A DNA stretch of 64,000 nucleotides from Terriglobia bacterium (GCA_963666975.2 CAXVYR010000004.1:640001-704000), one strand, 5' to 3'. Counted from the first letter of the stretch, positions 5,851 to 25,231 are shown. Notes: generated by a model not told the origin, from the sequence alone. Translations and numbers: made by a program.

Positions 5851-6381
5851 GGAAAGCAATCTCGCTGCCCTCTGCAACGATAAGGATGGGCATCGAAAAT
5901 GATCGAAGCCAACAAGGACCACGCAGGAGAGACGAGACATCTGCAACGAAACGGTCCGCCTGAACGCACACAGGAATATAGCTTAATCCTCGTTTTTGGT
6001 CGAGTCGTAATGTAATTTTTAACGGTTTTGTTTGTTACCTCCCTTCAGCGCCCATCCCACCTTCGGGACAACCTGCCGAGTAGGAGGAGCAATCGGCTAC
6101 TAGCAGATTAGGTATCTCAGCAGGAGTGAGGTTTCCTCGGCAGCAGTTCTCAACGGGCATACTGGTTGAGGCGGCTATCCAACAGATTGGGTCAGATTCG
6201 TTTGGTTCGCAGAGGAAACAATTTGGGCAGCTTTTGTAATGGCGCGAATTTAAACATCTCGGGTGAAATTGCCTCATGGCGGCGACGGCGCCTTTCACCA
6301 TGCGAAAGGGAACCTGAGGGGTCCCGCTACGATCGTAAACTCAAGGTCGGGAGAAAATCCAGAGATAGAGGAGCGCATAGA

Positions 6382-6681
6382 ATGCACAATAAGCTGGAGT
6401 TCATTGATCCGCCGGAATTGGGTAAGCATCCCGGCTACAGTAATGGAATCAAGACAAAATCGGCCAGTCTGCTCTTCGTAGCTGGTCAAGTGGCTTGGGA
6501 TGAAGCCAACAAGATTGTCAGTTCCGAGTTTGTTGGGCAATTTGACCAGGCGTTGTCCAACGTACTTACGGTGGTACAGCAGGCGGGTGGCAAGCCGGAG
6601 GACATTGTCCGCTTGACGATTTATGTGCTGGCCTGCTCGCATTCCACGATACAGGTGCCGGTGTGGCTGTCGAATGGATAG
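6382..6681 (+). pseudogene. RidA/YjgF family protein, C-terminally truncated near 6630
   Basis: 'GYSNG', 'LLFVAGQVAWD', 'DIVRLTIYV'; the second half is absent and the frame runs into the antisense of the next gene. Confidence 0.8.
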
Positions 6682-7247
6682 CAGTGCGCCTGGAACAATC
6701 CGTGCTCGTTCTCACAAAACAGGAACGTAAAGGCGTCAAACACCTTATCGGTTCCGAGCCAGATGAACTTGGCGTTTTCTACCGTCACACTCGGCTGGAA
6801 GATGGACTCGTAGGTCTTCCGCACAATGCTGTTGACACCATCGGCGGCGATGATCAGATCATAGTCGCAGAATTCCGACAGGTCGCTCACCTCAACCCCA
6901 AACTTCATCCGGACGCCCGCTTCGCGGCAGTGCTTCTGCAAGATGTTGAGCAGCAGTTTCCGCGAGATGCCGGCGAAGACGTGGCCTCCAGAACGGATGG
7001 TGTGATCGTGGTATTGCACGTCAATGGCATCCCACCTGACGAAGTGTTTCATGATGTCCTGGTAGGTCTCCGAATCAACCTCCTGGAAAGTAGCCAGCGT
7101 CCGTTCGGAAAAAACCACTCCCCAGCCGTAGGTCGCATCGGGCGGATTGCGCTCCAGGAGTGTGATATCGTGGGTTGGGTCCGCCTTCTTCAGCAGAAAT
7201 CCGCTGTATAATCCTCCCGGTCCTCCCCCGATGATGAGAATCTTCAC
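6621..7247 (-). pseudogene. FAD-dependent monooxygenase (salicylyl-CoA/anthraniloyl-CoA monooxygenase-like), N-terminal fragment
   Basis: 'MKILIIGGGPGGLY', 'TYGWGVVFS', 'DLIIAADGVNS', 'FIWLGT', 'AHCYPF..TCIVEC'; ends abruptly at 208 aa. Confidence 0.85.
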
Positions 7248-7292
7248 GGCATGCGTCTCCCAAACTCTCCAGATGCGTGATGCGTATTCCCC

Positions 7293-7865
7293 CTAGCCAA
7301 CGGCCTCGGCTAGGCGGGCGAGTTGAGTGATGTTGCCCACAGTGGGGAACAAAAGCAGTTCGTCGCAACCTGCTTCTTGATAGCCTTGGATGAACTCGGC
7401 AACGGCTTGCGGGGTAGTGAGCAGGCTGGCGGTGATTCTATCGGCGAACGGTCCTGCGAAAAAATAGTAGTCCTTCATGTAACGGATACCTGCCTCCACC
7501 GCATCTTCGCCGAGCGCATAGTAACCCATTCCCCACAGTAGCAGCTTATCCGGGCGTCCCGCATCGAACCAGGCGGCTCGAGCTTTTTCAGCGGCGCGGG
7601 CGAAAACCCGTGGTGGTCCGCCCCCGTGCAGGTAGCCATTCGCGTAGCGGGCCATGCGGGCAAAAACCGGCTCGCTCGTCCCGCCTACCAGCAGTTCCGG
7701 GCCGCCGGGACGGGCCGGCTTGGGCCCCAAGGTATCCTCCTCCCAGTACGAGCGCAGGGCGCCCAGTTGCTCCGACAGCCGCCTGCCCCGAGATCGGTAC
7801 TCGACTCCCGCCACCTTGTAGTCGGCCTCCCGAGCCCCCACGGCCATGCCCAAGACCAGCCGGAT
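7293..7865 (-). pseudogene. LLM-class (luciferase-like) flavin-dependent oxidoreductase lacking its N-terminus
   Basis: 'RLVLGMAVGAREADY', 'GPKPARPGGPELLVGG', 'YQEAGCDEL'; sequence upstream of about 7865 is unrelated. Confidence 0.75.
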
Positions 7866-8411
7866 AGTTAGGTGCTTCCGCCATCCAGTGTTGTTAGGCT
7901 GCGAGAGACATTCGCTTATTGCTGGCAGCAACTGAGATTGTGGAGGAAACGAACACCAATATGAACTTTTCCCAACAGCGGGAATTCCTTTTTCGATACC
8001 TCTCCAATCATCGTAAGACCCCTTTTGGCATGTACTCAGCATGCTTAATTGTTGGAGGTTGTGCGTTTTCGCCGTTGCCGGATCGAAAGGAAATCATTTC
8101 TGCGCGGCCACCACTGGAGCCCAAGTCAAGACACTGCTCAGCCACTACCGAGGGCTAGGCCTGGCGGAACAAACTGAAGAGAATTTAATTGAGGTCCGCG
8201 AATTCTGCTATTCGCTCTCTTTTGTTCCTGGTGGGCCGCAACAGCAATGCAAGAACTCCCCCAAGCCTGATATTCCCAATTATCACTATATTACCACTCG
8301 GCGATCCGTGACTATTTTCCGAGTTTGTTACCAACGTGTTTAGGGATTATGGTGGAATTACTTCTCGGATGGACTCCCTGAAAAAATGAGGGAAGCCCAC
8401 CAGAATAAAGC

Positions 8412-8441
8412 TTGACAACCAGATTAGGAAAAGCATAGTGT
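8412..8441 (+). promoter_or_regulatory. Putative sigma70 promoter for the receptor-amidohydrolase locus
   Basis: TTGACA at 8412-8417, 18-bp spacer, TAGTGT at 8436-8441; about 110 bp upstream of ATG 8554. Confidence 0.5.
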
Positions 8442-8553
8442 TAACCACATATTGTGGACGTTTTACAAGATAATTCAAACTGCATCGTTCCTGAAGGCAA
8501 GGGAGAAAGCACTTGTCAGCCGAGCGATCCGTAACCGCAAACAGGAGGAAGTT

Positions 8554-11500
8554 ATGTCAGTGAGAAGGCTTTGGTCGGTGGTATTGGTGTGTGCGTTTTT
8601 CATCGGTGGAATCACTTGGGCTCAGGTGACCACTGGGACGATCTCGGGAACCGTAACCGACTCTACCGGAGCGGTGATTCCCGGAGCCACCATCACATTG
8701 AGGAACGTGGAGACGGGGATTACCCGCACAATCTCCACCGATGCGGCGGGCCGTTACACGGCTCAGCAGTTGGGGCTGGGCGGCTACGAAGTCACGGCGG
8801 GGTCGGCGGGCTTTCAAACTTTGATCCGGAGCGGCATTGAGATGACCGTGGGCCGGCAAGCGGTGTTGGATTTCGCCTTGCAAGTGGGAGCGGTGGCTGA
8901 GTCGGTGACGGTGACCGGGGAAGCTCCGTTGCTGGAGACCACCAACTCAACGGTGGCCGACCTGGTCACTGAGAAACAGATGCGGGATCTGCCGCTGAAC
9001 GGCCGCAGCTTTACGAATTTAGTGGCCATCCAGCCGGGTGTGGTTACAGATCTCGGGATTCCTCAGGGGGTATTCCAAGGTGGAGGCAGGATGTCACTGA
9101 ACGGTGCTCGCCCGCAGCAAAGCTTATACCTGCTGGACGGAACCGATATTGTGGCTCCCTATTCGAATGTGGCTCCTGTCAGCGTATTGTTCCAGGCGCT
9201 GGGAGTGGACACCATTCGGGAATTCTCCGTTTTGCAAAACAACTACGGAGCCCAGTATGGCCGCGCCGTCGGCGGCATCATGAGTGCCGTCACCCGTTCG
9301 GGCACCAACCAGATACACGGCAGCCTGTTTGAGTTTATGCGGAATGAGAAGCTGGACGCCAAGAACTTTTTTGATTCGGGCGAAGATTCGATCCCGCCCT
9401 TCAAGCGAAACCAGTTTGGGGGAACGATTGGGGGACCGATTGTGCAGGACAACACCTTTTTCTTCTTCTCCTACGAAGGTCTGCGGCAGGTCCTGGGAAC
9501 GACGGATTTCGGCACCGTATTCAGCGACGAGACGCGGCTAGGGGTGATCACAGGTTGTCCCCCAGGGCAGTCGAGTTGCACGGAAGAAGAGCGCATTGTG
9601 GCAGACACAGTAACAGTGAATCCTGACATCCAGCCTCTCATCGCCATCGCCCCGCGAGGTAACGGCCGCTATCTGAACGATGGAATTCAGGAATTCTTCG
9701 GCAGCCGGTCGCAGCGGGGCCGGGAGAGTTACTACATGTTCCGCATTGATCAGCGGATCAGCGACAACGACAGTTTGTTTGGCCGGTGGACGGGCGATCA
9801 CAGCAGCAAGGAACTTACCGATGCCCAGTTCTTCGCGGACGGTAGCGGCAGACACACCAGCACCGACGACGACGGTTTCTATGGCTTCTTGACAGTGGAA
9901 TGGACACGAATCCTGTCGCCTACGGTCATCAATATTGCGCGGGCAGGGTTTGCTCGAAACAACAACCGCCAGTGCATGTGCATTGATGGGACTGAGATTG
10001 GTGTGAACGAAATAAGTCACCCCGACTATCCCGTTGGCATGATCCCGGCGCAGTTGCAAATCATCCCCGGAATCCCGTTCGGAGGGCCGTGGGGGATGCC
10101 GGGTGTTGACATTCCTGGCGGGCACAATGGTATTGGCCGTCATACCGAAGGTGCGGACTTGGACGATCCCTTACATTACGTTGACAACACCTTCAGCTTT
10201 GCGAACTCTGTCCGCATTGCAAAGGCCGGGCACTCGGTGGACATCGGCGTGGACGTGAGGCGCTATCAAGAGAACGCGCTGCAATCGGTATGGGGCAAGG
10301 GAGGCACCAACTTCCGTTCCCCCATGCGGAACTTCTTGACCGCCGGCAGACCCGATCTTTGCCTGGAAGGGGGTGAGAGTTCCCGCAACTGCCGTGGGCT
10401 TAACACGCTCACTACGACAGGGATAACCGGACCGCCCGATTCATATCGCGGATTCAGGCAGACCTACTATGCCATGTTCTTTCAGGACGACTACCAAATC
10501 CGGCCGAACCTGACCTTGAACTTTGGGATCCGGTGGGAGTCAATTACGGGGCCTACAGAAGTCAACCAAAAGGTGGCGACCATCCTGGACGTATTGAACG
10601 ATGCGGATTGGACCCAGTTGGGGGACAAACCCTTGTTTGAGCTGCGCGATGGGTTGAAGGGTTTTTCTCCGCGATTCGGCTTTGCTTACAGCCCGGATCA
10701 AAGCACCTCCATCCGCGGTGGTTTTGGAACGTTCCGGGAGATGCCGTTGTTGTACTCGTACCAGTTAGCTGTTTTTTACCCCCCGTTTTCGGATCGGCTA
10801 CAGATACGGTCATTCCCACTTGATGCGTGGCCGAACCCCTTGGCTGGCATTGATCCGGCCGGAGCCCGGCGGCAGCCGCTGACGGTCAACCACGACTACA
10901 AATACCCGTACAGCATGCAATGGAACTTGCAGATTGAGCGGCAGATTGGGCAGACATGGGTAGCCAAGGCCGGCTATGTGGGGACCCGTGGGATCAGTCT
11001 CATATCGATCAATAACCTGCTTCAGCCAGCCCAAGAACTAGATGACCAGGGTGTGCCGTTCACACCTCGCAACGCACCTTCCCCCAATCCGGCCATCTTC
11101 TCGACTCGTAGTTACGGCAATTTTGGGGATTCCTGGTACAACGCGCTGCAACTGCGTCTCAAAAAGCGCTTCAGCCATGGAATAGATTTCAATTTTGGTT
11201 ATACCTGGTCGAAGAACATCGGCGATACGGGAATCGGCCTGAAGGGCGCAGAAACCCCGGGAGGAGACAGTCAGCAAGTCGGCTCCTTATGGGACTGGAA
11301 GATACTTGACAGGGGACTGGTCGCCCAGGACACTCGTCACAACTTCACGTTCAACTTCAGCTACGACGTCCCAATCGGGCCGGGGCGCTTCTTTGGCGGT
11401 AACATGGGCAGTGTCGCGAATACCATCCTCGGTGGCTGGCAGCTCAATAGTATCTTCAAAGCGCGATCAGGGTTACCGATGACCATTTCTGGAGGCGGCT

Positions 11501-11919
11501 ACAGCCGAAACAGCTACTGCCGCACCTGCGAAATTCGGCCCAATTTGGCTCCGGGGGGAGATAATAACCCGGTTAGGGATGAATGGGATCCGAATGCCCC
11601 GACTCCGGAATCTGCTTACTTTGATGTGTCGAATTTTGAGGTCGTGCCAGCCAGCTACTACGGCAACTTGGGGAAGCACACCTTGACCACACCCGGCTTG
11701 ACCACAGTGGATTTCTCCATCTTTAAAATGTTCGAACTGGGCGAGGCCAAGAACCTCCAGTTCCGAGCAGAGGTCTTCAATCTGCCGAATCACCCGAACT
11801 TTGCCCGGCCGAATGCTTCCGTCTTCCGCACCAATGGTTCTGTTAACCCGACGGTAGGGAAGATTACGCAAGCTCGCACCTCCCGGCAGATTCAGTTGGC
11901 GCTCAAGTTCGAGTTCTAA
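8554..11919 (+). CDS. TonB-dependent receptor (Oar-like, N-terminal carboxypeptidase-regulatory-like domain)
   Basis: Signal peptide, 'GTISGTVTDSTGAVIPGA', 'DLPLNGRSF', 'RNQFGGTIGGPI', C-terminal 'RQIQLALKFEF'; AGGAGG RBS. Confidence 0.95.
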   Translation: MSVRRLWSVVLVCAFFIGGITWAQVTTGTISGTVTDSTGAVIPGATITLRNVETGITRTISTDAAGRYTAQQLGLGGYEVTAGSAGFQTLIRSGIEMTVGRQAVLDFALQVGAVAESVTVTGEAPLLETTNSTVADLVTEKQMRDLPLNGRSFTNLVAIQPGVVTDLGIPQGVFQGGGRMSLNGARPQQSLYLLDGTDIVAPYSNVAPVSVLFQALGVDTIREFSVLQNNYGAQYGRAVGGIMSAVTRSGTNQIHGSLFEFMRNEKLDAKNFFDSGEDSIPPFKRNQFGGTIGGPIVQDNTFFFFSYEGLRQVLGTTDFGTVFSDETRLGVITGCPPGQSSCTEEERIVADTVTVNPDIQPLIAIAPRGNGRYLNDGIQEFFGSRSQRGRESYYMFRIDQRISDNDSLFGRWTGDHSSKELTDAQFFADGSGRHTSTDDDGFYGFLTVEWTRILSPTVINIARAGFARNNNRQCMCIDGTEIGVNEISHPDYPVGMIPAQLQIIPGIPFGGPWGMPGVDIPGGHNGIGRHTEGADLDDPLHYVDNTFSFANSVRIAKAGHSVDIGVDVRRYQENALQSVWGKGGTNFRSPMRNFLTAGRPDLCLEGGESSRNCRGLNTLTTTGITGPPDSYRGFRQTYYAMFFQDDYQIRPNLTLNFGIRWESITGPTEVNQKVATILDVLNDADWTQLGDKPLFELRDGLKGFSPRFGFAYSPDQSTSIRGGFGTFREMPLLYSYQLAVFYPPFSDRLQIRSFPLDAWPNPLAGIDPAGARRQPLTVNHDYKYPYSMQWNLQIERQIGQTWVAKAGYVGTRGISLISINNLLQPAQELDDQGVPFTPRNAPSPNPAIFSTRSYGNFGDSWYNALQLRLKKRFSHGIDFNFGYTWSKNIGDTGIGLKGAETPGGDSQQVGSLWDWKILDRGLVAQDTRHNFTFNFSYDVPIGPGRFFGGNMGSVANTILGGWQLNSIFKARSGLPMTISGGGYSRNSYCRTCEIRPNLAPGGDNNPVRDEWDPNAPTPESAYFDVSNFEVVPASYYGNLGKHTLTTPGLTTVDFSIFKMFELGEAKNLQFRAEVFNLPNHPNFARPNASVFRTNGSVNPTVGKITQARTSRQIQLALKFEF

Positions 11920-12022
11920 AGCTAGGAGCAGTGACTTAAAGACAAGGTGCTTTCATGAAAGGCTAACCCCTTTGTGGAAGCACCTTTTTTATTTCAGCCT
12001 ATTGCTGAGGAGAGAAGCAATT

Positions 12023-13912
12023 ATGAGGAAAACGCTGTATGCAAGCTTGGCGATAGTTCTGGCTACTGGGTGGGGATGGGCTCAGCAAGAGAATGTTGCA
12101 GCGAAGTTAGGCTATCCCCAGATGATTGTTTACAACGGCAAGGTCGTGACCATGGACGACGCCTCGTTTGAATCACGAGTCGGGACCATTGTGCAGGCGA
12201 TGGCGATCCGGGACAGCAAGATTCTGGCGACGGGGAACAATGCAGAGATTCAGGCTCTGGCCGGGCCGCAGACGAAACAGATTGACCTCCAGGGCAGGAC
12301 GGTGCTGCCGAGCTTCATCATGACCCACGAACATCCCACCGACTGGGTCTTTATCGAGCCACGGGCTTTCCGGCACGTTCTGCCGGGGGACGATGTCATC
12401 GTCTCGCGATGGATGCCGAATGAGCCTCCCAAGCAACAGTTGGCGAAGCTGGAGCCGACGATGCGGGAGGCGGTCTCCAAGGCCAAGCCGGGACAGTGGA
12501 TTCGGGTGATCTTCAACTGGGGACCGGAATACGAATGGGCCACCGAGATGCAGCCGCTCTTTCGCAATTCCATCACCAAGGAATGGCTCGATGACATGGC
12601 CCCCAATAACCCGGTCACTGTGAAGAATGGATTCATTAATTCCGTATCCAATAGTAAAGCTGTCGAGGAATTGGCAAAGGTGCATGATCTGGAATCCTAC
12701 GATCCTGGCCCCGGCGGCGGAGGCCAAAAGGGCATTCGAGCCAGAGAAACCGGGCAATTGGGACGCCCGGTAGATCCCAATGCCATGCTCAGAGGAAAGC
12801 TCCCGGTGCTGGCTGAGCTATTGAAAGCGGAGTTGGAATTGTGGGGAAGCTACGGGATCACGACCTTTGGTTCCTCGCCCTACGCCTATCACAACCTCCA
12901 GGCCTTGGACTATTTGGACAAGCGAGGCGAGATGCCTGCCCGTTTTACCTGGGGTTATACGGGACCGACTTGGGACATAGAGACATTGCGGGTCCTGGCG
13001 GGCACATTAGGACATGGGACAGACCACCTGTGGCTTGTGGGAGCGTGGAAAGATACGGGCAGCGGTTGCATGAGCGTGCCGATGAGAGCGGAATGGGTCG
13101 AGCAAATGCGCGAGCAAGACGCGGGCTTTTCAGGGACGGGCCGCTGCAATTTCGCTCCCGGCACCGAGGGGAGAGAGATTCTGGAGCGGATCGTCGAAAG
13201 TGGCCTGCGGGTGGCCACGCTGCATACTGGCGGGGATAAGGATATCGACTACTTCATGGATGCGATCGAGCAGGCGAGCAAAAAAGCAGGTTTTACTCTA
13301 GACCAGATCCGCAGCAAGCGTCATGCCTTTGACCACAGTTCGGGTGCTCCCCGGCCAGATCAGATCCCCCGCATTAAGAACCTGGGGATGATGGTAAGCC
13401 AGATCAATACCATTTTGTGGGAGACGCACCGCGGGGCATCGATGACCGCCAAACAGTATGGGATTGAGTACACCGACTGGGTGGTGCCCCGGAAGAGTTT
13501 GACCGAGGCGGGGGTGATGACCACCTTCGAGATCGACCGGCCCTTGCCGCGCAAGGTGTTTTTCTTCATTACCAAAGGGATGAATCGGTACAACGACCGG
13601 GACCAGAGGGTCTATGGGCCGAACCAGAGGACGGACCGAATTGTCCAACTGAAGGCCCTGACGGTGTGGGGAGGCTATTACGTCTTGCGGGAAAACCTGT
13701 TGGGTACGCTGGAACCGGGTAAGTTTGCGGATTTCATCGTCCTGGATCGGGACTTTCTGACGGTCCCGGAGGCGGAGATCCCAGACACGACGGTGTTGAT
13801 GACGGTGGTGGGCGGCAAGACAGTGCATTTGGCTTCCCCGCTAGCGAGGGAGATTGGGATGCAACCAGTGGGCGCGAGCACCTGGACGGAACCGATCCCG
13901 GAGGGATGGTAA
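12023..13912 (+). CDS. Secreted amidohydrolase (Amidohydro_3/YtcJ-like), paralogue 1
   Basis: Signal peptide, 'NGKVVTMD', 'IDLQGRTVLP', THEH, 'GTLEPGKFADFIVLD', 'VLMTVVGGK'. Confidence 0.9.
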   Translation: MRKTLYASLAIVLATGWGWAQQENVAAKLGYPQMIVYNGKVVTMDDASFESRVGTIVQAMAIRDSKILATGNNAEIQALAGPQTKQIDLQGRTVLPSFIMTHEHPTDWVFIEPRAFRHVLPGDDVIVSRWMPNEPPKQQLAKLEPTMREAVSKAKPGQWIRVIFNWGPEYEWATEMQPLFRNSITKEWLDDMAPNNPVTVKNGFINSVSNSKAVEELAKVHDLESYDPGPGGGGQKGIRARETGQLGRPVDPNAMLRGKLPVLAELLKAELELWGSYGITTFGSSPYAYHNLQALDYLDKRGEMPARFTWGYTGPTWDIETLRVLAGTLGHGTDHLWLVGAWKDTGSGCMSVPMRAEWVEQMREQDAGFSGTGRCNFAPGTEGREILERIVESGLRVATLHTGGDKDIDYFMDAIEQASKKAGFTLDQIRSKRHAFDHSSGAPRPDQIPRIKNLGMMVSQINTILWETHRGASMTAKQYGIEYTDWVVPRKSLTEAGVMTTFEIDRPLPRKVFFFITKGMNRYNDRDQRVYGPNQRTDRIVQLKALTVWGGYYVLRENLLGTLEPGKFADFIVLDRDFLTVPEAEIPDTTVLMTVVGGKTVHLASPLAREIGMQPVGASTWTEPIPEGW

Positions 13913-13924
13913 CCAAAGCCTTAT

Positions 13925-14027
13925 TATTGAGGTTTACATAATATAGTGACACTTAGATTCGCTGGGCGGCCTTCTGTAGGGCTTTTGAAGCCTGTAGAAA
14001 TGTCACTATATTATGAAATGTTCAATA
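13925..14027. mobile_element. MITE-like element, about 103 bp
   Basis: Perfect 15-bp inverted repeat cataatatagtgaca (13937-13951) / tgtcactatattatg (14001-14015), extending imperfectly to tattga/tcaata; internal hairpin; no ORF. Confidence 0.6.
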
Positions 14028-14106
14028 GGAGAAAATCGTCCTTACGGACCGTTAATCGATTGGAGCAACCGGTACATTTTTCTGCATTAACACAAGGGAG
14101 GAAACC

Positions 14107-16002
14107 ATGAGGAAAGCGGGCGCGATACTGTTGGCAGTTGTTTGGTGTAGTGTTTGGGGATGGTCCCAGAATGTTAGCGTACCGGCGGTGCTGGCGAACT
14201 ATCCACAAATGATCGTGTACAACGGAAAGATCGTAACCATGGACGATGAGTCCTTCGAGCCCCGCGTCGGGACGATCGTGCAGGCGATGGCGATCCGGGA
14301 CGGGAAGATCTTCAAGATGGGGAACGATGCGGAGATACGAGCCCTGGCGGGCCCGCAGACGAGGCAGATTGACTTGAAGGGGCGAGAGGTGCTGCCGGGT
14401 TTTATCATGACGCACGAGCACCCTGTCGACTGGATGTGGACGGAACCTTTGGCCTTCCGGCATGTCTTCCCGAATGACGAGGTAGCTGTCTCGCGATGGC
14501 TGCCTAACCTGCCGGCGAAGGAACAGTTTGCGCTGTTTGAGCCAACGATGCGGGAGGCACTGGCGAAGGCAAAACCGGGTCAGTGGATCCGGGTGATTCC
14601 CAACTGGGGCCCGGACAACGAGTGGGCTGAAGAATTTAGAGGGCAACTTGGTGATATCTGGGAAACATCCATCAAGAAAGAATACCTGGATATATTGGCG
14701 CCCAACAATCCGGTCTGCATCAGTAACGGCTTTACCAGCGCTTGCATGTCCAACACGAAGGCCATACAGGAATATCGTAGTGTGCATTCAGACATGGACG
14801 CTCAAGATGAGCAATCGGGAGTGTTAGGCCGCAAGATGCCGTCCGATGTCATACTGAAGGGGAAAGTGCCCCTTTTAGCTGAGCTTCTGAAGGCTGAACT
14901 GGAGTTGTGGGCTCGCTACGGGATCACGGCTTATGGCTCCGCGCCTTATGCTTACACGAACCTGCAAGCCCTGAATATTTTGGACCAAAGAGGCGATCTG
15001 CCGGCGCGGTATGCGTGGACATGGCATGCTGCAGTAGCTCCAAAAGGGTGGGATTTAGACACACTGCGACATATGTCTGGCATGCTGGGACAAGGGTCGG
15101 ACCACTTGTGGTTTATAGGCGCTTTCGGTTCTTCTGGCGGTTGCATGTCGATCTCGCCGAGACCCGAGTGGTCGGAGAAGTGGGGAGCCAATCTGCCTCG
15201 GTATTCCTATAGCCCGGAATGCCGTAACGCTCCCGGCACGCCTGGGTATGATAGGAATGTGGCGATCGCCGAGTCCGGCCTCCGGATCGCCACAATGCAT
15301 TCCTCAGGGGACAAAGGGATTGACTACGTCATGGACGCAATCGAAGAGGGTAGCAGACGAGCCGGGTTGACGCCGGAAGAGATTCGCTCCAAGCGGCATG
15401 CGTTTGATCATGCAGCGGGAGCTCCCCGACCGGGCCAGATTCCTCGCCTCAAGAACCTGGGGATGATGACGAGCATGCTCAATACGATTCTGTGGGAGAC
15501 CCACCGGGGGGCCTCGCAGGTTGCCAGGCAGTTCGGGGTGGAATACACGAACTGGGTCGTCCCCCGCAAGAGTGTGGCGGATGCCGGAATCATGAATACG
15601 TTTGAAATAGACCGGCCGCTGCCGCACAAAGTGTTTTTCTTTGTTGCAAAAGGGATGAACCGCTATAACGACCGGGATCAGCAAGTGTACGGACCGGGGG
15701 AGAGGACGGACCGGATTACGCAGTTGAAAGCGCTGACGACCTGGGGAGGATATTATTTGCTGCGGGAAAACCTGGTGGGGAGGCTGGCACAGGGCTCGTA
15801 TGCTGACTTCATTGTGCTGGACCGGGACTTTCTGACGATACCGGAGGCGGAGATACCACAGACGCAGGTGCTGATGACGGTGGTCGGCGGGAAGACGGTG
15901 CATCTAGGCAATGCCCTGGCCAGAGAGATTGGGATGCAGCCAGTGGGGCCGAGCACCTGGGCGGAGCCGATTCCGGAAGGATGGGAGCCGAAGGCTTATT
16001 GA
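14107..16002 (+). CDS. Secreted amidohydrolase (Amidohydro_3/YtcJ-like), paralogue 2
   Basis: Same architecture as paralogue 1: signal peptide, THEH, RHAFDH, FEIDRP; GGAGG RBS. Confidence 0.9.
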   Translation: MRKAGAILLAVVWCSVWGWSQNVSVPAVLANYPQMIVYNGKIVTMDDESFEPRVGTIVQAMAIRDGKIFKMGNDAEIRALAGPQTRQIDLKGREVLPGFIMTHEHPVDWMWTEPLAFRHVFPNDEVAVSRWLPNLPAKEQFALFEPTMREALAKAKPGQWIRVIPNWGPDNEWAEEFRGQLGDIWETSIKKEYLDILAPNNPVCISNGFTSACMSNTKAIQEYRSVHSDMDAQDEQSGVLGRKMPSDVILKGKVPLLAELLKAELELWARYGITAYGSAPYAYTNLQALNILDQRGDLPARYAWTWHAAVAPKGWDLDTLRHMSGMLGQGSDHLWFIGAFGSSGGCMSISPRPEWSEKWGANLPRYSYSPECRNAPGTPGYDRNVAIAESGLRIATMHSSGDKGIDYVMDAIEEGSRRAGLTPEEIRSKRHAFDHAAGAPRPGQIPRLKNLGMMTSMLNTILWETHRGASQVARQFGVEYTNWVVPRKSVADAGIMNTFEIDRPLPHKVFFFVAKGMNRYNDRDQQVYGPGERTDRITQLKALTTWGGYYLLRENLVGRLAQGSYADFIVLDRDFLTIPEAEIPQTQVLMTVVGGKTVHLGNALAREIGMQPVGPSTWAEPIPEGWEPKAY

Positions 16003-16034
16003 GCCGAATGTTAGGTTTGCGGTAGGAGAGGAAG

Positions 16035-17948
16035 ATGAGAATAGGTCGGATAATGAGTGTGGTTTTGACTGTGGTGTTAGCCTCTGGCTTGGCCTGGTCT
16101 CAACAAGCGAATGTTGCAGCGAAGTTAGGCTATCCCCAGATGATCGTCTACAACGGCAAGGTCGTGACCATGGACGACGCCTCGTTTGAGTCGAAGGTAG
16201 GCACCATCGGGCAAGCGATGGCGGTGCGCGGGGACAAGGTATTGGCCGTCGGAACCAACTCGGAAATTCGCGCTCTGGCCGGGCCGCAAACCAAGCAAAT
16301 GGACTTAAAGGGCCGGACCGTGCTGCCCAGCTTCATCCTGACCCACGAACATCCCACCGACTGGGTCTTTATCGAGCCAAGGGCTTTCCGGCACGTTCTG
16401 CCGGGAGACGATGTCATCGTCTCCCGATGGATGCCGAACGAGCCTCCCAAGCAACAGTTGGCGAAGCTGGAGCCGACGATGCGGGAGGCGGTGTCCAAGG
16501 CCAAGCCGGGACAGTGGATTCGGGTGATCTTCAACTGGGGACCGGAATACGAATGGGCTACGGAGATGCAGCCGCTGTTTCGCAACTCCATCACCAAGGA
16601 ATGGCTCGATGACCTGGCCCCCAATAACCCGGTCACTGTGAAGAATGGATTCATTAATTCCATTGTCAACAGCAAAGCCATCGAGGAATATCGGAGTGTC
16701 CACGATGACGTCAGTTTTTACTCGACCGGGCGCCGGGGAGGCGGACGGATTCCGGAACGGGAGGCCCAGGCCGAGCGAACAGGGAACTTAGGCCGTCCCG
16801 TCGATCCGGATGCCATGCTCAAAGGGAAGCTCCCGGTGCTGGCCGAGCTGTTGAAAGCAGAGTTGGAGTTATGGGCAAGCTTCGGGATGACAACCTTCGG
16901 TTCCTCCCCCTATGCCTATCACAACCTCCAAGCCTTTCACCTTTTGGATCAGAAAGGCGAAATGCCAGCTCGCTTCGCTTGGGGTTATACGGGGCCTGCT
17001 TGGGACAAGGAGACATTGCGCGTCCTGGCAGGCACACTGGGACATGGGACGGATCACCTGTGGAATGTGGGGGTGTGGAGTGGCTCGGGCAGCGGTTGCA
17101 TGACCGTGCCGATGCGAGCGGAGTGGATCGAACAAATGCGCGAGCAAGGCGCGGACTTTGCAAGGTCGGGCCGGTGCAGTTTCGCTCCCGGTGCAGTTGG
17201 AAGAGAGATCATGGAAAGGATCATCGAAAGCGGCAATCGTATAGCCACGATGCACACGGGTGGAGACAAGGATATCGACTATTTCCTGGACGCGATTGAG
17301 CAGGCGAGCAAGAGAGCAGGCATTCCTCTGGACGAGGTCCGCGCCAAGCGCCATGCTTTTGACCACGGTTCGGGTGCTCCCCGGCCGGACCAGATCCCCC
17401 GCATTAAGAACCTGGGGATGATGGTGAGCCTGATCAACACCGTTTTGTGGGAGACGCACCGGGGGGCGTCGGTGACTGCCAAGCAGTATGGGATTGAGTA
17501 CACCGATTGGGTGGTGCCGCGGAAGAGTTTGACCGAGGCGGAGGTGATGACCGGCTTCGAGATCGACCGGCCTCTGCCGCACAAGGTGTTTTTCTTTATC
17601 ACCAAAGGGATGAATCGGTACAACGACCGGGACCAGAGAGTCTATGGGCCGAATCAGAAGACGGACCGGATCACCCAGTTGAAGGCGTTAACGGTGTGGG
17701 GAGGCTATTACGTCTTGCGGGAAAATCTGTTGGGTACGCTGGAGCCCGGTAAGTTTGCGGATTTCATCGTGCTGGACAAGGATTTTCTGACCGTCCCGGA
17801 GGATCAGATTCCAGGCATTCAAGTGCTGATGACCTCAGTGGGCGGCGAGGTGGTTCACCTGACTTCTTCGCTGGCCAGCGAGATCGGAATGCAGCCCGTG
17901 GGCGCTACCACCTGGAAGGAAGCGATCCCGGAAGGTTGGGAATACTAG
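16035..17948 (+). CDS. Secreted amidohydrolase (Amidohydro_3/YtcJ-like), paralogue 3
   Basis: Same architecture; long stretches near-identical to paralogue 1. Confidence 0.9.
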   Translation: MRIGRIMSVVLTVVLASGLAWSQQANVAAKLGYPQMIVYNGKVVTMDDASFESKVGTIGQAMAVRGDKVLAVGTNSEIRALAGPQTKQMDLKGRTVLPSFILTHEHPTDWVFIEPRAFRHVLPGDDVIVSRWMPNEPPKQQLAKLEPTMREAVSKAKPGQWIRVIFNWGPEYEWATEMQPLFRNSITKEWLDDLAPNNPVTVKNGFINSIVNSKAIEEYRSVHDDVSFYSTGRRGGGRIPEREAQAERTGNLGRPVDPDAMLKGKLPVLAELLKAELELWASFGMTTFGSSPYAYHNLQAFHLLDQKGEMPARFAWGYTGPAWDKETLRVLAGTLGHGTDHLWNVGVWSGSGSGCMTVPMRAEWIEQMREQGADFARSGRCSFAPGAVGREIMERIIESGNRIATMHTGGDKDIDYFLDAIEQASKRAGIPLDEVRAKRHAFDHGSGAPRPDQIPRIKNLGMMVSLINTVLWETHRGASVTAKQYGIEYTDWVVPRKSLTEAEVMTGFEIDRPLPHKVFFFITKGMNRYNDRDQRVYGPNQKTDRITQLKALTVWGGYYVLRENLLGTLEPGKFADFIVLDKDFLTVPEDQIPGIQVLMTSVGGEVVHLTSSLASEIGMQPVGATTWKEAIPEGWEY

Positions 17949-18161
17949 AGCGTTTTCGCAAATGGTGTAAACCACAACGCGTTGTCATTCCGAGCGCAGC
18001 GAGGAATCTGCTTTTCGCCGGGTAAGGGCCAATCCCCTTGTACAAAAGCAGATCCTTCGCGGCGTTTACCCTGAGCAACGCCGAAGGGCTCAGGATGACA
18101 GCCAAAGAGGTTGCCTGGTTCCGATGGCGGAGCGGTCTACACCATTTGCGAAAACGGTATA
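17946..18161. mobile_element. MITE-like element enclosing a REP-like palindrome
   Basis: 28-bp inverted repeat, 25/28 match: tagagcgttttcgcaaatggtgtaaacc (17946-17973) vs 18134-18161; inside, gtcattccgagcgcagcgaggaatctgctt...aagcagatccttcgc...ctcaggatgac. Confidence 0.7.
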
Positions 18162-18253
18162 AATCAAGAGACTTTTTCTTCGCGGGATGGGGAGGCGATG
18201 ATGAAACCCACTCTGTGCCTATTAGCCTTACTGTGTATAGTAGCGGCCGGCGT

Positions 18254-18419
18254 GGTGCTTCCGCAATCGACTGTTGGTGGGATCAGCATAACCTTATAAT
18301 GTTCAATATGTTGCTGGCAGAAATGGTCTTGGCAGTTCTGCCGTGTGGCAAATACAGGATAACCAAATTTGTTTGTTGGATATAGGGATGCGCTAACAAC
18401 ACAAGATTGCGGAAGCACC
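18254..18419. mobile_element. MITE, 166 bp, with 15-bp perfect terminal inverted repeats
   Basis: ggtgcttccgcaatc ... gattgcggaagcacc; AT-rich interior; second copy at 26996 and a lone end at 48156. Confidence 0.75.
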
Positions 18420-18814
18420 GAATAAATAGAATTGGTGTGAACTTTTGGACAAGCGGGTTTTATTTAAGCAAAGCCTGGTCCACCTGCACGCCCGAGGCAC
18501 CCAATGGAGTGGCACCCAATTCGAGAAGCAGATTCGCCGTAATCTCGCGCATCGCGCGCGGTTTCGCGTTAAAGGCATCCGCCAAACCCACTGTAAGGAT
18601 GTTCGACGTGATACTCAACGGCGTTTGGCCCCACTTATCCATCACGTCCATCTTGGCACCCCTGTCCACCAGAAACTGAATGATTGTATTCAATCCGCTG
18701 TATGCTGCGGCGTGCAGTGCGGTCTGGCCCACTTCGTTGGCCGCATTGACATCGGCGCCCAATTCCACAGCCAATTTGAAGGCTTCGAGAGCGCGCCTCT
18801 CCGCCGCCTCCGTG

Positions 18815-20263
18815 GAAGGTGTCCCAAACTCAGTTGCAGGTTGGGACGGCGGGTTGAGTTCATATTACGCCACTTCCTCCTTGTGAGAGGAAGCAGCGTT
18901 TGGACTTCGGCCGAGAATCGATGCCAAAGCCCAGAGATCGTGATAACCCATGATCTTCCGGAAATTCTTCTCGGTCAGCAGAAACGCTCCTGCCACCCAG
19001 CGCAACGTCATCTCGCCGTCGCGCCAGCGGCAAACATTGCCAGTCTTTTTCCGCACGCCCGACTGCGGGCTCTCGATGAGGTTCGTGGTTGCCAGGCAGC
19101 GGTGGAGGCTGGGAGGAACGTCGGCTCGATTGATCGTAAAGGTCTCCTCCAACCCTTCGCGCAAGCTGGCGGCTGCTGCCGGATGATCGCACTCGATCAT
19201 CCCAGCGAGCTTCTTTATGCGCACGATGCCTTCCTCGGCTTGGGGCAATCGCCAGGCGGCGCGCATCAGCGACCGCACCTGATTCGCCAGCATTTTGTCG
19301 CCCTTTGGTAACCGCTCAGCCACGTTGCGCAGCTTATGAGTACGGCAACGCTGCACCAGCTGATTGCTGCCGAATACTTCCTCGATCCCCGCGCGGAGCG
19401 CTTTGGCGCCGTCGATCACAAACAGATAGCGCTGATCCGTGCGCAGACCTTGCTGGCGCAGGCGGGTGAGAAGGTCTTTCACCGCAGCGGCGTTTTCGGT
19501 CGCGCCCAGTTGAATCCCCAGCACATGCTTGCGGCCCTCGCTGTCCACGCCCACGGCGCTGATGACGTGGTGGGAGCCGAACCGCATTCCGTCCAGGTAA
19601 ATCACCAGAATCTCGACCTCCTCCCAGCGCCGCGCCAACAGTTCTTCCAGCCGCCGCGCTCCTTGCTCGGCCGCTTCCCGGCTCACCTGAGACTTCGACA
19701 CCCCAGCGCTGTTGGCCATCTCCGGGATCACCTCGCGGTAGTTCCGCGTCGAAACCCCTTTCAACAGTGCCTCGAACATCTCCTCGCCCGTCTTCTCGCT
19801 TTTCCGCAGCGCTTCGTAGGCCGGCACCGCTTCTTCCCCTCCGCCCTTCCGGCGCAGCCGGGGCCGCTCCACCCGCAGCTGGCGATCGGCCAGTTTCACC
19901 CTCCCCAATTGCCGGCCATGCCAGCGCACCTCTCCGCTCGCCTTCCCGGGACTCTTTGGCCCCGCGATTTGCTCTGCGCTCATGCTCAGAATCGTTTCAA
20001 TCAAACCTCGCCCGGCCCGATCAATCACCTCATCCACCGCCAGACGCGCCTCCGTGATCAGATCCACCACCGGCAACAGCATCTGTCCGTTGGTTTGGCA
20101 AAACTTCTGGATGGTTTCTTCGGCTCCCTTGGAACCCAGTTCCAAAACGTGATATTTTCCCTTCATTCGGCGGTTCTCCTTCTATAGGATTTAGGCTTGG
20201 CCCGATTCTATTCGATTCGGGCCGAACCGCCGTTCAACCTTCAACTATGTATGGGACACCCTC
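18815..20263 (-). mobile_element. IS256-family element, copy 1 (1449 bp)
   Basis: Imperfect terminal inverted repeats gaaggtgtccca.../...tgggacaccctc; 8-bp target duplication cctccgtg (18807-18814, 20264-20271). Confidence 0.95.
18865..20166 (-). CDS. IS256-family (mutator) transposase
   Basis: 'GVSTRNY', 'IYLDG', 'FVIDGAKAL', 'QRCRTHKLRN', 'TTNLIES'. Confidence 0.95.
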   Translation of the reverse strand: MKGKYHVLELGSKGAEETIQKFCQTNGQMLLPVVDLITEARLAVDEVIDRAGRGLIETILSMSAEQIAGPKSPGKASGEVRWHGRQLGRVKLADRQLRVERPRLRRKGGGEEAVPAYEALRKSEKTGEEMFEALLKGVSTRNYREVIPEMANSAGVSKSQVSREAAEQGARRLEELLARRWEEVEILVIYLDGMRFGSHHVISAVGVDSEGRKHVLGIQLGATENAAAVKDLLTRLRQQGLRTDQRYLFVIDGAKALRAGIEEVFGSNQLVQRCRTHKLRNVAERLPKGDKMLANQVRSLMRAAWRLPQAEEGIVRIKKLAGMIECDHPAAAASLREGLEETFTINRADVPPSLHRCLATTNLIESPQSGVRKKTGNVCRWRDGEMTLRWVAGAFLLTEKNFRKIMGYHDLWALASILGRSPNAASSHKEEVA

Positions 20264-21659
20264 CCTCCGTGTATATTCGATAGTTATTTGGATTTACGTC
20301 GTTATGCTCAGTCGCAGCGCCCCCTCCCGCCGCCAGAAGCAGCGATGTGGTATTGTCCTCCATTGCCAACAAAGGATCGGCGCCGCTGGTCGCCAGGACA
20401 CGCATGACGCCGGTGTTGTTGTTCATGGCTGCCAGCAAAAAAGGGGTTGCGCCAACTAGGACTATGCCTCCGATTGCAGGCACGTCCTTCCCGAGTCGAG
20501 CGTTCGGATTCGCTCCATGTGCCAGGAGCGCCTTCACCAATTCCTCCATGGTCCGGGAGGTGATGATTATAGCCCCTTGATATCTGCGGCCCAGGTTCTG
20601 CCCCGACGCCGCATAGTGTAGAGCAGTAAACCCTTTTCCGTCGACCGTCGCGTTCGGGTCCGCGCCTTTGTCCAGCAGAAATACGGAAAGCGCTTCGTGT
20701 CCGCTGGAGCTCGCCACCAGTAAGGCGCTCATGCCGTCCGGCGCGGCCTCATTCACATTCGCTCCCGTTGCCAGTAGTATCTGGGCAGAGTCCAGATCGC
20801 CCTGCTGGGCAGCAAACAGCAACGGGGAAAAACCGCCTTTCGAACGGGCATGAACATCCGCTCCGTGCTCGATCAACGGTCGCGCGACATCCGGGTGTTT
20901 TCTTGCCAAAGCCCACATTAGTGCCGTTTGCCCCCCCTGATTTTCTGCCGCGTTTGGGTCCGCTCCGTTAGCCAGCAGCGACTTCACCGCCTTCACGCTT
21001 CCGGTGTCCGCGGCCGCCATGAGCGGCGTTTCTCCTAACGGCAGGGCGGCGTTCGGGTTTGCCCCGGCGCTCAACAGCTTCTCGACCATGACAGCGTTCC
21101 CATTGCGGCAAGCTAGCCATAGAGGAGTGGCGCCATAGTCGTTCCTTGCATTCACGTTTGCGCCGGCATGAATTAGAAGTTCCGCCGTTTCCAGATCATC
21201 CAGGTGGACCGCCCATGCCAGTGCTGTCGCGCCATCCGCACCCGAGCGCATTTACATCGCTGTGGTGCTGTAGCAGGGAGCGGACGGCCTCCTTATCTCT
21301 CTTCTTAACCGAATCAATCAGCCGAAGATCGCTGCTGGCGGCAGCTAGGCTGGCGACTGAAAGCAGAGTTACTATACACCAGACACCAAAAAGCCTAATT
21401 TCAGCACCCATCCTCGGTTTCTCCCTTCGCGGAATTGCTCTCTAAAAACCCGACAAGAAATTTTCGCAGGATCACAATTCGTTCAAATAAAGGCCACCCG
21501 TTTTTTAACAACGAGCTATTGACTGGGTGGAAAGATATCGAATTGGAGCCTGTACGGCTTACTTTGCCGGCGCATCAGCGCCACGCATTGCTATAATTGC
21601 AACCATCGCCCCAAATCTAATCCCACATGCGGAAAAGAAGCCAAGTCCTTCACCACCAT

Positions 21660-23015
21660 TTACACTGCGAGGAGGTTCAGCTTTCCAGTGCTGTCGCCGA
21701 ATTTCTCCACTGGAATCCCTAACATGTCAATCATGGTCAAATACAAATTGGTCATCGGGGTACCCTTTGGATACCGGAGGTGACGGCCTCCTTTGATCTG
21801 ACCTGATCCCCCACCCACTAACAGGGTGGGTAGGTCCGTAGGTATATGCTGGTTACCGTCGCTCAGACCGGCACCATAAACGATCATTAAATGATCCAGC
21901 AGGGAGCCATCGCCGTCAGGCGTAGATCGCAGCCTTTCCAGGAAATAGGCGAACATCTTGGTATGAAAGATGTTGATCTGGAGCGCCTTCGCGATCTTCT
22001 CGGGGTCGCCCTGGTGGTGCGTCAACGGCTGGTACGGATCCCAAATGCCAAGGTCGGGATAGGCCTGAGCGCTCATTTCGTGTCCTACCATGAGGGTGCT
22101 GACGCGGGTCAGGTCGGTCTGATAAGCCAACACCTGCAATTCAAACAGCAACTTAATGTGCTCTGTAAAAGTTGCAGGGATCCCACCAACGGGTCGCTGG
22201 AAGTTCGGCAACTCCCGGGAGGATTGTTCCTCGGCCATCTGGATGCGCCGCTCGACATCTCGAACGGCATCGATATACTGGTTGACCTTGGTACGGTCGC
22301 TGGGGCCGAGATCGCTCAAGAGCCGAGCCACATCTCGGGTCATGAAGTCGAGAATACTGCGCCTCTCCTGGATTCGGGCGAGCTGGCTGGCACGATCCGT
22401 ACTCTCACTGTCCCCGAACAGACGTTCGAACACCACGCGCGGTTGGTTCTCCATCGGCAGCGGCGTCGTGGCATTGCGCCAGCAGATCGTGTTGTGGTAG
22501 GCACAGCTGTAGTTGGCATTGCATGCGCCCACAACCTCGCTGGATTCTATGCCGAGCTCAAGCGACCCGAGTTGGGTATACTTTTGGAGTTCCTTCGCAA
22601 CGATCTGGTCTGCAGATATTCCCGCGACAACATCAGCGCCTCCCGTCGGCTTCGGGTGAACACCCGTAAGGTATGCGCCGCTGGCGCGCGGATGCTCTCC
22701 CACAGGTTCCCCCGGCAGCCCAAGAGCTTCGTTGGAGTCGAGGCCGCTCAGTACGAGAAGCTGATCCCGAAATGGAGCCAGCGGTTCCAGAATCGGAGTC
22801 ATCGCGAAAGCAGCGCCCTCTGTTGCCGGCGTCCATTGATTCATAAGTATCCCGTTCGGAACATAGACGAATGTCATGCGGGTCGCAGACTGGGGCGCCG
22901 TGTCGATCGTGCTGGCGAATGCTGGAATCATTCCTTCCAGCAGCGGGATAGCCAACGTTGTTCCCATCCCGCGCAAAAACGTGCGTCGAGGGATAGCTTT
23001 CTTGAAGATCATCAT
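21660..23015 (-). CDS. DUF1552 domain protein (Tat-like RR leader)
   Basis: 'PRRTFLRGMG', 'YVPNG', 'LGSLELGIE', 'CAY.NTI.W..TTPLPME', 'DGDGSLLDH'; ATGA overlap with the upstream stop. Confidence 0.9.
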   Translation of the reverse strand: MMIFKKAIPRRTFLRGMGTTLAIPLLEGMIPAFASTIDTAPQSATRMTFVYVPNGILMNQWTPATEGAAFAMTPILEPLAPFRDQLLVLSGLDSNEALGLPGEPVGEHPRASGAYLTGVHPKPTGGADVVAGISADQIVAKELQKYTQLGSLELGIESSEVVGACNANYSCAYHNTICWRNATTPLPMENQPRVVFERLFGDSESTDRASQLARIQERRSILDFMTRDVARLLSDLGPSDRTKVNQYIDAVRDVERRIQMAEEQSSRELPNFQRPVGGIPATFTEHIKLLFELQVLAYQTDLTRVSTLMVGHEMSAQAYPDLGIWDPYQPLTHHQGDPEKIAKALQINIFHTKMFAYFLERLRSTPDGDGSLLDHLMIVYGAGLSDGNQHIPTDLPTLLVGGGSGQIKGGRHLRYPKGTPMTNLYLTMIDMLGIPVEKFGDSTGKLNLLAV

Positions 23016-23879
23016 GGCTCTTCCGGCCTCCTCATCTGAAATGGAGTGCTGTTGACTATTCCCAAAACTAGCTCCGACCACCGGTAGTCGCGGGCAGCGA
23101 CCTCCCTTGTGATCTTGCGGATGGCTGGAAAGTCGTAATACTCGACTCCCCGGCCGAGGGCGTAAGTGAGAAGTTTTTCCGTGAGGGTAGTGACAAAATC
23201 TTCGCGACGGCTCAGCAATATTTGCCGGAGCTCCGCAGGACCTTGAAACTTGGTGCCGTCGGGCAGCACCCCGGACGCATCAATAGGAGTGTTCGCCACG
23301 CCGCTGGTGGTCCGCCACCTGCCGATCGCGTCATAGGTTTCGAGCGCGAAGCCCAACGGGTCCATCAGTCGGTGGCAACTTGCGCAGACGGGATTCTTGC
23401 GGTGCTGTTCCATGCGCTCGCGCATTGTGAGGGCCTTGGCATCATTGTCTTCCTTCAATGATGGCACGTTCGCTGGCGGCGGCGGGGGTGGCGTACCCAA
23501 AATGTTTTCGAGCAGCCACTTGCCGCGTATCGTCGGGGCTGTCCTGGTGGCATACGACGTCACTGTCAGAATGCTGCCATGGCCCAGCAACCCTCTCCGA
23601 TTTTCATCGCTCAACGTCACGCGCCGAAACGTGCTGCCGTGAATATTCGGGATCTGATAATGCCGGGCCAAACGTTCGTTGAGGAACGTATAATTCGCGT
23701 CCAATAAATCCAGCACGCTCCGATCCTCGCGCACAATGCTTTCGAAGAAAAGCTCCGTCTCTCGCTGGAATGCCTCCCGCAGGTTGTCGTCGAACTCGGG
23801 AAAGACTGTACGTCGTCAGATAATGTTGGACACAGAGCATAAAAAGATAAGGTGGCGTTCAGGCTCCTCTGGGTTGATG

Positions 23880-24863: not shown

Positions 24864-25231
24864 GTATGTTCCTCCCCATCCCCGATCACGCTTTTTTTTA
24901 GCAGGCGATTTTCCAGCATAGCCTCGGCCAGGGCCTCTTTCAGCTGTACGGCCTGCTCCCGCAGAGTCTTGACTTCGCCACTGGTTGCCTCACGGTCTAT
25001 GTCGCCCGCCAGCCGCTTGCGGCCAGCCTCCAGAAACTCCTTGCTCCAGCGGTAATACTGGTTCTGGTGCAGCCCCTCGCGGCGGCACAGCTCCGCGATG
25101 CTGTCCTCGCCGCGAAGTCCCTGCAATACAATGCGGATTTTGTCTTCCGGGCTGAACCTGCGCCGCGTCCTGCGTTTGATCTCCCGGACGGCCTTCTCGA
25201 CCGCCCCCCTGTCGTCTTGTTTTTGTCTCAT
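24860..25231 (-). CDS. Transposase OrfA (HTH), probable -1 frameshift into OrfB
   Basis: 'RRFSPEDKIRIVL', 'IAELCRREG'; A8G slippery run at 24891-24899 on the minus strand. Confidence 0.88.
   Translation of the reverse strand: MRQKQDDRGAVEKAVREIKRRTRRRFSPEDKIRIVLQGLRGEDSIAELCRREGLHQNQYYRWSKEFLEAGRKRLAGDIDREATSGEVKTLREQAVQLKEALAEAMLENRLLKKSVIGDGEEHT

Follow-up and report, generated by a model that had tools for sequence, protein, structure and literature searches.

In polysaccharide utilisation loci (PULs) of the SusC/SusD type, and in the carbohydrate utilisation loci built around TonB-dependent transporters (CUT loci), a TonB-dependent transporter gene lies beside several genes for exported hydrolases. 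A second point of reference is the YtcJ-like group of Pfam family PF07969 (Amidohydro_3), of which NfdA is a characterised member. Some characterised YtcJ-like enzymes are secreted and bear Sec signals, and the secreted Bilophila bile salt hydrolase, metalloBSH, cleaves N-acyl amides and holds two zinc ions with six metal residues that include a carboxylated lysine (available part of bioRxiv 10.64898/2026.04.05.716592). N-acyl amides are also cleaved by the epsilon-lysine acylase SmELA (available part of PMC10699109). Transporters of the Oar type are known from Myxococcus xanthus, where Oar is required, TonB-dependently, for secretion of PopC from the periplasm (available part of PMC6434023). 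Here we analyse a locus of Terriglobia bacterium in which the gene for an Oar-type TonB-dependent receptor is followed by three co-oriented genes for exported amidohydrolases (AMH1 to AMH3). It occupies positions 8412-17948 of a 64,000-nt stretch of the genome (GCA_963666975.2 CAXVYR010000004.1:640001-704000), hereafter the window, from whose first letter all positions are counted.

The genome (4.23 Mb in four contigs, 98.9% complete) contains many relatives of these enzymes. A six-frame search gave 118 matches, and phmmer on our own set of open reading frames (ORFs) gave 102, comprising 87 of at least 500 residues and 15 fragments. Together the 87 full-length genes take up 165,798 bp (3.9% of the genome), and they fall into 54 arrays: 38 singles, eight pairs, three triples, three of four, one of five and one of seven. 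The same genome encodes 38 Oar-type receptors of at least 700 residues. Linkage between receptors and arrays is recurrent, enriched and directional. Thirteen of the 54 arrays, with 32 of the 87 genes between them, have a receptor no more than 1 kb away, where 3.9 arrays and 7.7 genes are expected at random; at seven arrays the receptor is directly upstream on the same strand, against 0.26 expected. When the 38 receptors were placed at random, these figures were not attained in any of 2000 trials, although this permutation test overstates the linkage because the copies are not independent of one another. The first-pass annotation had singled out this locus as PUL-like; its pairing of a receptor with exported enzymes stands, while the locus itself proves not to be special, being one among many in a genome with 87 paralogues.

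The linkage extends to a second exported amidohydrolase family, PF01979 (Amidohydro_1, in some members with a TIG domain), which has 25 members of at least 450 residues. An array of six to seven PF01979 genes lies directly downstream of an Oar-type receptor, with a hairpin at the junction, at 208947-221821 of contig C4. Counting both families, 16 of the 38 receptors are within 1 kb of an exported amidohydrolase gene, and such genes adjoin 10 of the 11 paralogues most similar to the receptor of the window. A quick maximum-likelihood tree places the window's receptor in a three-member clade whose members are all linked, and six members of a neighbouring group of eight are linked to the PF07969 family. 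Linked receptors cluster on this tree, the label changing 8 times against 11.6 in shuffles, of which 11 in 500 gave a value as low. A further receptor close to that of the window, at C3:46095-56264, heads a run of four co-oriented genes for exported-looking proteins (494, 490, 559 and 552 residues) that have no Pfam match.

The window contains the following features.

8412-8439, plus strand: promoter-like site TTGACA-16-CATAGT, 10 of 12 positions matching, upstream of the receptor gene
8452-11919, plus strand: ORF of the Oar-type TonB-dependent receptor, likely ATG at 8554, 1121 residues
11946-11984, plus strand: terminator-like hairpin with a T run to 11992, between the receptor gene and AMH1
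12023-13912, plus strand: AMH1 (ORF 11972-13912, likely ATG at 12023), 629 residues, Amidohydro_3 E 3.5e-38
13985-14014, plus strand: second promoter-like site, 9 of 12 positions matching, in the 194-nt gap before AMH2, a match to the pattern only
14107-16002, plus strand: AMH2, 631 residues, Amidohydro_3 E 3.1e-25
16035-17948, plus strand: AMH3, 637 residues, Amidohydro_3 E 1.8e-32, the protein used for modelling
18865-20166, minus strand: IS256-family transposase gene (NF033543, E 1e-61), the downstream bound of the locus
31258-33141, minus strand: AMH4, 627 residues, Amidohydro_3 E 4e-29, with no receptor beside it

The receptor gene, whose likely start codon is preceded by AGGAGGA, encodes a signal peptide-like N-terminus, a CarboxypepD_reg extension, a plug and a large beta-barrel of the 22-strand type, the layout of Oar (Pfam OMP_b-brl_4, E 7e-179; CarboxypepD_reg, 4.8e-20; Plug, 6.8e-07; TonB_dep_Rec_b-barrel, 2.7e-07). 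All four AMH proteins match PF07969 with 90-133 bits, above the cut-off of 29.7. AMH1 is 66% identical to AMH2, 82% to AMH3 and 43% to AMH4. The N-termini of the receptor and of all four enzymes are basic, then hydrophobic, and end in A or S followed by Q; by a rule-based check, 86 of the 87 genome paralogues likewise have a signal-peptide-like N-terminus, ending in A or G followed by Q. Neighbours scanned against Pfam include neither a glycoside hydrolase nor a SusD-like gene. The description given by the first-pass annotation thus holds in its main parts: the ORF listing and Pfam agree on the receptor and on the three co-oriented, mutually paralogous enzymes of about 630 residues, the fourth paralogue is where it was placed, each enzyme has an export-type N-terminus in line with the signal peptide claimed for it, and the carbohydrate-type neighbours reported missing are indeed absent from the scanned genes.

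To place the enzymes within the amidohydrolase superfamily, we compared AMH3 with solved structures. By sequence, its only solved relatives are two uncharacterised Pyrococcus hydrolases, found at E 1e-6 with AMH3 alone and 1.8e-13 with a 60-sequence profile. An AlphaFold2 model built on the 60-sequence alignment (predicted local distance difference test score, pLDDT, 92.9) has its best Foldseek match in 3icj (E 1.3e-24) and its best VIA-align match in 3igh (Z 32.6, root-mean-square deviation 3.6 over 462 residues). The next match follows at Z 26.6, and at Z of about 27 and below comes the rest of the superfamily, deaminases, prolidases, imidazolonepropionase and triazine hydrolases among them. 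The modelled fold is therefore best described as a predicted (beta/alpha)8-barrel nearest to the solved YtcJ-like structures. A catalytic set aligning with the motifs of 3icj is present (AMH3 numbering): an HxH on strand 1, a histidine on strand 5, a histidine on strand 6 and an aspartate on strand 8. Among the 87 paralogues these are kept almost without exception (H104 in 87, H106 in 87, H407 in 86, H444 in 87 and D511 in 83), and in 81-85 of 85 homologues from other genomes. Several arginines are likewise conserved across the paralogues, Arg313, Arg402, Arg450, Arg528 and Arg545 being invariant together with Asp411, as are Cys355 (83 of 87) and Cys381 (82 of 87).

One residue of the YtcJ-like metal site differs. 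The lysine of the 3icj motif WGVKLFVDG, which follows strand 4, aligns with Gly346 of AMH3, with moderate alignment confidence at this point, and glycine occupies the position in 85 of the 87 paralogues and in all 85 homologues elsewhere. On these alignments the enzymes are a distinct clade within the YtcJ-like PF07969 proteins in which glycine replaces the carboxylated lysine, and this replacement suggests a changed and possibly mononuclear metal site. Likeness to NfdA, which had been invoked for these proteins, holds at the level of the common Pfam family and goes no further, the clade being without the carboxylated lysine. No NCBIfam model comes near its cut-off for the AMH enzymes; the weak matches of an N-terminal stretch, far below cut-off, are to 8-oxoguanine and guanine deaminases. 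Public names of homologues are limited to 'amidohydrolase family protein' and 'predicted amidohydrolase YtcJ', and ESM Atlas returns only unnamed Acidobacteriota amidohydrolase clusters. As the first-pass annotation had supposed, no characterised pathway claiming these enzymes was found among the NCBIfam, structure and sequence matches.

A terminator-like hairpin stands between the receptor gene and AMH1 (-27.8 kcal/mol, z -3.2, with none of 200 shuffles as good). We scored such elements throughout the genome as hairpins with a stability of at least -20 kcal/mol that directly adjoin four or more consecutive T no farther than 160 nt from a stop codon. They occur at seven of nine receptor-to-enzyme junctions, at four of 30 enzyme-to-enzyme junctions and at 32 of 1006 other co-oriented pairs (3%), and only two of the 54 arrays end with one. 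Comparing the lists, nine of the 38 receptors bear such a hairpin, and seven of these nine are within 1 kb of an amidohydrolase gene. In other genomes the hairpin was present at four of seven junctions examined. Across four junctions, three from this genome and one from a same-genus genome, compensatory changes affect nine of 21 predicted pairs, while the receptors themselves are about 47% identical; with so few sequences this is modest evidence for the predicted pairing. An alignment of five junctions with a second type of hairpin gives a poor consensus (-5.45 kcal/mol). An Rfam search of 8000-18500 returned no riboswitch or leader, its sole match being sR28 at E 0.48, and no common promoter or operator was found upstream of nine receptor paralogues.

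We read the junction element as a putative terminator or attenuator that would decouple the level of the enzymes from that of the receptor, a role in stabilising RNA being equally possible. Given a hairpin after the receptor gene, receptor and enzymes are probably expressed discoordinately rather than from one simple operon, and the enzymes would be expressed by read-through or from promoters of their own. The first-pass annotation had noted one promoter-like site at the locus. The site upstream of the receptor is present, though the pattern is not enriched above chance (six sites in the region against 5.5 in shuffles) and a second site precedes AMH2; because of that second site and the junction hairpin, a single four-gene operon is not established, and one promoter driving it is doubtful.

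Sequencing runs of seven studies contain the stretch, including four metatranscriptome libraries of one study; in two runs labelled as sponge metagenomes, only 0.06-0.09 of its words matched. RNA-library contigs were aligned over 6000-21500. Such contigs cannot show RNA ends, levels or absence, and we therefore conclude neither co-transcription nor its lack. In the four RNA libraries, contigs start at 8463, 8463, 8463 and 8466, which is 24-27 nt past the -10 element and fits the promoter-like site at 8412-8439, although contigs cannot prove an RNA start. Without mismatches, they cover the receptor gene from 8463 to 11931 or 11941, AMH1 over 13027-13463, AMH2 over 14334-14664 and 14871-15565, and parts of AMH3 between 16649 and 17668; none was found over 6000-8067. 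Among the contigs listed, three runs of one study have contigs over the receptor that stop at either 11931 or 11941, and no contig bridges 11941-12091. Contig depth is greater over the receptor than over the enzymes, a quantity that cannot rank genes.

Within this genome the nearest paralogue lies within 20 kb for only 16 of the 87 genes, and the median identity to the nearest paralogue is 76%, so most arrays are not fresh tandem copies. Two pairs of genes on separate contigs are 100% identical (C3:308601-310439 with C4:577921-579759, and C3:880557-882392 with C4:773381-775216) and point to recent segmental duplication. Transposase genes of the IS481-like, DDE_Tnp_1_4 and IS256 types often neighbour arrays throughout the genome.

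Beyond this genome the family is narrowly distributed. Within the taxonomic family, each of the 13 other genomes has matches at E<=1e-30, the number of first-look candidates ranging from 11 to 128; in other families of the class three of 27 genomes match, once each. Sampling 200 further genomes evenly across the phylum gave a single genome with matches at E<=1e-60. This genome, G148, is 3.6 Mb in size and belongs to a different family; AMH3 finds 56 matches in it at E<=1e-20 (best identity 42%), of which at least one adjoins an Oar-type receptor, and it may represent a second, separate expansion. Matches at E<=1e-30 were found in 210 of 1.84 billion representative protein clusters; the family is therefore rare worldwide and hugely amplified in a few lineages. 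We fetched 62 homologue loci from other genomes and metagenome-assembled genomes (MAGs). As had been expected if receptor and enzymes belong together, an Oar-type receptor is the commonest neighbour (13 of 62 loci, all labelled Acidobacteria or Terriglobia). Among full-length receptors listed, 12 of 25 in a same-genus genome have a family member within 1 kb, and that genome contains a receptor followed by seven enzymes and another followed by eight.

Homologues of about 49% identity occur in MAGs of Woeseiaceae and other Gammaproteobacteria, mostly as single genes; classical receptors lie within 10 kb in four of 20 such loci. A conserved ORF of about 125 residues, without a Pfam match, is found near the gammaproteobacterial homologues in 10 loci (L014, L017, L038, L040-L044, L048 and L050), directly downstream in most. 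We considered a 115-residue ORF of the window, at 18038-18385, as its counterpart and rejected it, there being no similarity between the two.

Taken together, we favour with moderate confidence the reading of the locus as a nutrient-acquisition module, in which import through the receptor is followed by periplasmic C-N hydrolysis. Organic nitrogen compounds that are scarce or bulky and contain amide or amidine bonds would enter the periplasm through the receptor, and there the paralogous Sec-exported enzymes, with somewhat different specificities, would cleave C-N bonds to yield smaller acids together with amines or ammonia. A complex prediction for AMH3 (residues 24-637) with the receptor's N-terminal extension and plug (residues 25-250) scored 0.00 in two runs and weighs neither way. 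Several observations count against this reading. A receptor is missing within 1 kb of 41 of the 54 arrays (55 of the 87 genes); the copies are kin, and arrays may have been duplicated as units, many being flanked by insertion sequence (IS) elements. Among full-length receptors listed, only one of 13 and one of nine in two genomes of the same family, and one of five in a genome of another family, are linked to the enzymes, and no Oar-type receptor was found within 4 kb at any of the 20 gammaproteobacterial loci. Within the locus a terminator-like hairpin separates receptor from enzymes, and among Pfam-scanned neighbours neither a regulator nor an inner-membrane transporter adjoins it. Finally, the carboxylated lysine is absent, and the chemistry may therefore differ from that of the characterised relatives.

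The rival explanation that we rate highest, although we regard it as improbable, is that receptor and enzymes are neighbours without a shared job: both would belong to a general scavenging repertoire and have come to lie together by co-duplication and IS-driven shuffling, the enzymes taking small substrates that enter through porins and the receptor carrying something else. The unlinked arrays, the solitary gammaproteobacterial genes, the closing of the receptor gene by a hairpin at most junctions, the identical copies on different contigs and the rank of IS elements as the next most frequent neighbours would all follow. This explanation is harder to reconcile with an enrichment that is both strong and directional, that holds for two different amidohydrolase families, that is concentrated in particular receptor clades and that recurs in other genomes; the junction hairpin, too, is largely specific to amidohydrolase-linked receptors.

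Less probable again by our estimate, yet the main alternative to import, is a role in export, in which the Oar-type transporter would let Sec-exported amidohydrolases leave the periplasm and act outside the cell, by analogy with Myxococcus. The receptor has the Oar architecture, with its CarboxypepD_reg extension, plug and large barrel; the enzymes bear export signals and sit directly behind such receptors; and the lack of an inner-membrane uptake gene among the Pfam-scanned neighbours also speaks for it. Against this, the precedent is a single known case, in which the exported protein is a subtilisin-like protease that lacks a signal peptide (available part of PMC6434023). Moreover, 55 of the 87 family members have no receptor nearby, and a single receptor would have as many as seven or eight distinct enzymes of 70 kDa to let through.

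Mononuclear deaminases within the superfamily rely on HxH, His, His and Asp, the set that the AMH enzymes retain, and D-aminoacylases of PF07969 likewise do not have the lysine and yet cleave amides. Least likely of the three rivals is that the enzymes are mononuclear hydrolases of the deaminase or dehalogenase type acting on N-heterocycles (purine-, pyrimidine- or triazine-like) rather than on amide bonds: the near-invariant glycine, the residual metal ligands, the faint NCBIfam matches to guanine-type deaminases and the presence of adenosine and guanine deaminases, TrzN and AtzC among the next structural matches (Z 25-27) speak for it, but those structural matches tie, within about one Z unit, with prolidases and imidazolonepropionase, the nearest relatives by sequence and fold are YtcJ-like, the D-aminoacylases cleave amides without the lysine, and ninety exported deaminases are hard to rationalise.

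A bolder reading, which we offer tentatively and consider rather doubtful in its full extent, is that a Terriglobia lineage with a small genome bases its way of life on over 100 exported amidohydrolases (about 5% of the genome), arranged as 'amide utilisation loci'. Receptors of a dedicated Oar-type clade, each closed by a conserved terminator or attenuator hairpin, would head arrays of up to eight diverged enzymes of the lysine-less, possibly mononuclear YtcJ-like clade. Such loci would be either the nitrogen or amide counterpart of PULs or a second, far more extensive instance of a TonB-dependent transporter exporting enzymes.

Upstream of the locus lie two truncated genes on the minus strand (6621-8042): 6621-7247 matches only the start (207 of 768 positions) of the profile for a salicylyl-CoA 5-hydroxylase-like flavoprotein, and 7293-8042 is a fragment of a luciferase-like monooxygenase. 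Just 3′ of AMH3, a short repeat (17975-18100) has 24 partial blastn-short matches in the genome, and many differing, loose RNA-library contig ends fall at 17978 and 18016 with high summed depth. Downstream, 20241-21251 (minus strand) encodes a 336-residue protein consisting almost entirely of ankyrin repeats (Ank, E 1.3e-54). Farther on, a DUF1592/DUF1588-type gene on the minus strand is seemingly split, its N-terminal domains lying in 25274-27031 and its C-terminal domains in 23012-23734, with an IS inserted between the halves that comprises an rve-type transposase gene (23880-24863) and a probable 123-residue partner (24860-25231). A DUF1552 gene follows at 21660-23081 (minus strand). The DUF1592 and DUF1552 pair is also found near homologues at locus L062, and a DUF1592-type gene at L048. 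AMH4 is co-oriented with a 148-residue ORF of no family, an enoyl-CoA hydratase gene (29878-30690) and the gene for a 775-residue DUF5916/CBM9 protein (27236-29563), all within 27236-33141 on the minus strand. DUF5916 proteins also adjoin gammaproteobacterial homologues (L013 and L014). As a second linked outer-membrane partner the DUF5916/CBM9 protein is a weak candidate, which we set aside: of the 10 such proteins that the genome encodes, only four have a family member no more than 3 kb away.

The organic nitrogen of soils, sediments and waters is mostly in amide form, and to our knowledge little has been learned of how bacteria unlock the part that is not protein. A 4.2-Mb genome that devotes 3.9% of its length to one uncharacterised exported hydrolase family offers concrete candidate enzymes and transporters for this task. 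It also provides a natural test case as to whether transporters of the Oar type take substrates in or send enzymes out, and makes available for study an amidohydrolase-superfamily clade with a predicted alteration of its metal site. The recurrent hairpin at the receptor-enzyme junction may set the ratio in which the two are expressed.

Loci that combine TonB-dependent transporters with hydrolases are already a known kind, as is the amidohydrolase superfamily. No description of the present arrangement was found in the literature searched, which was screened mostly by record rather than by full text. Within that literature, the lysine-less exported clade, its amplification to about 90 copies alongside 25 of a second family, the dedicated Oar-type receptors and the junction hairpin appear undescribed. 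Compared with YtcJ-like PF07969 enzymes, the AMH proteins share the Pfam match above cut-off, the predicted fold and the conserved HxH, two histidines and aspartate. They differ from the solved YtcJ-like structures 3icj and 3igh, to which they are only 18-21% identical and than which they are about 150 residues longer, and from YtcJ-like enzymes generally in having glycine for the carboxylated lysine and a conserved cysteine pair. Unlike NfdA, SmELA and the Bilophila metalloBSH, the clade has no characterised member and is known here from sequence. The receptor has the same Pfam architecture as M. xanthus Oar, and in both cases the partners are periplasmic or exported hydrolases; whereas PopC is a protease without a signal peptide in the available part of the Myxococcus account (PMC6434023), the partners here are amidohydrolases with predicted signal peptides. 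SusC/SusD PULs differ in having a SusD-like lipoprotein, glycoside hydrolases and an adjacent regulator, none of which is seen at this locus, where an Oar-type receptor with a CarboxypepD_reg extension lies beside amidohydrolases and a terminator-like hairpin separates the two. With PULs and CUT loci it nonetheless shares an arrangement of which each genome has many versions, built from diverged paralogues.

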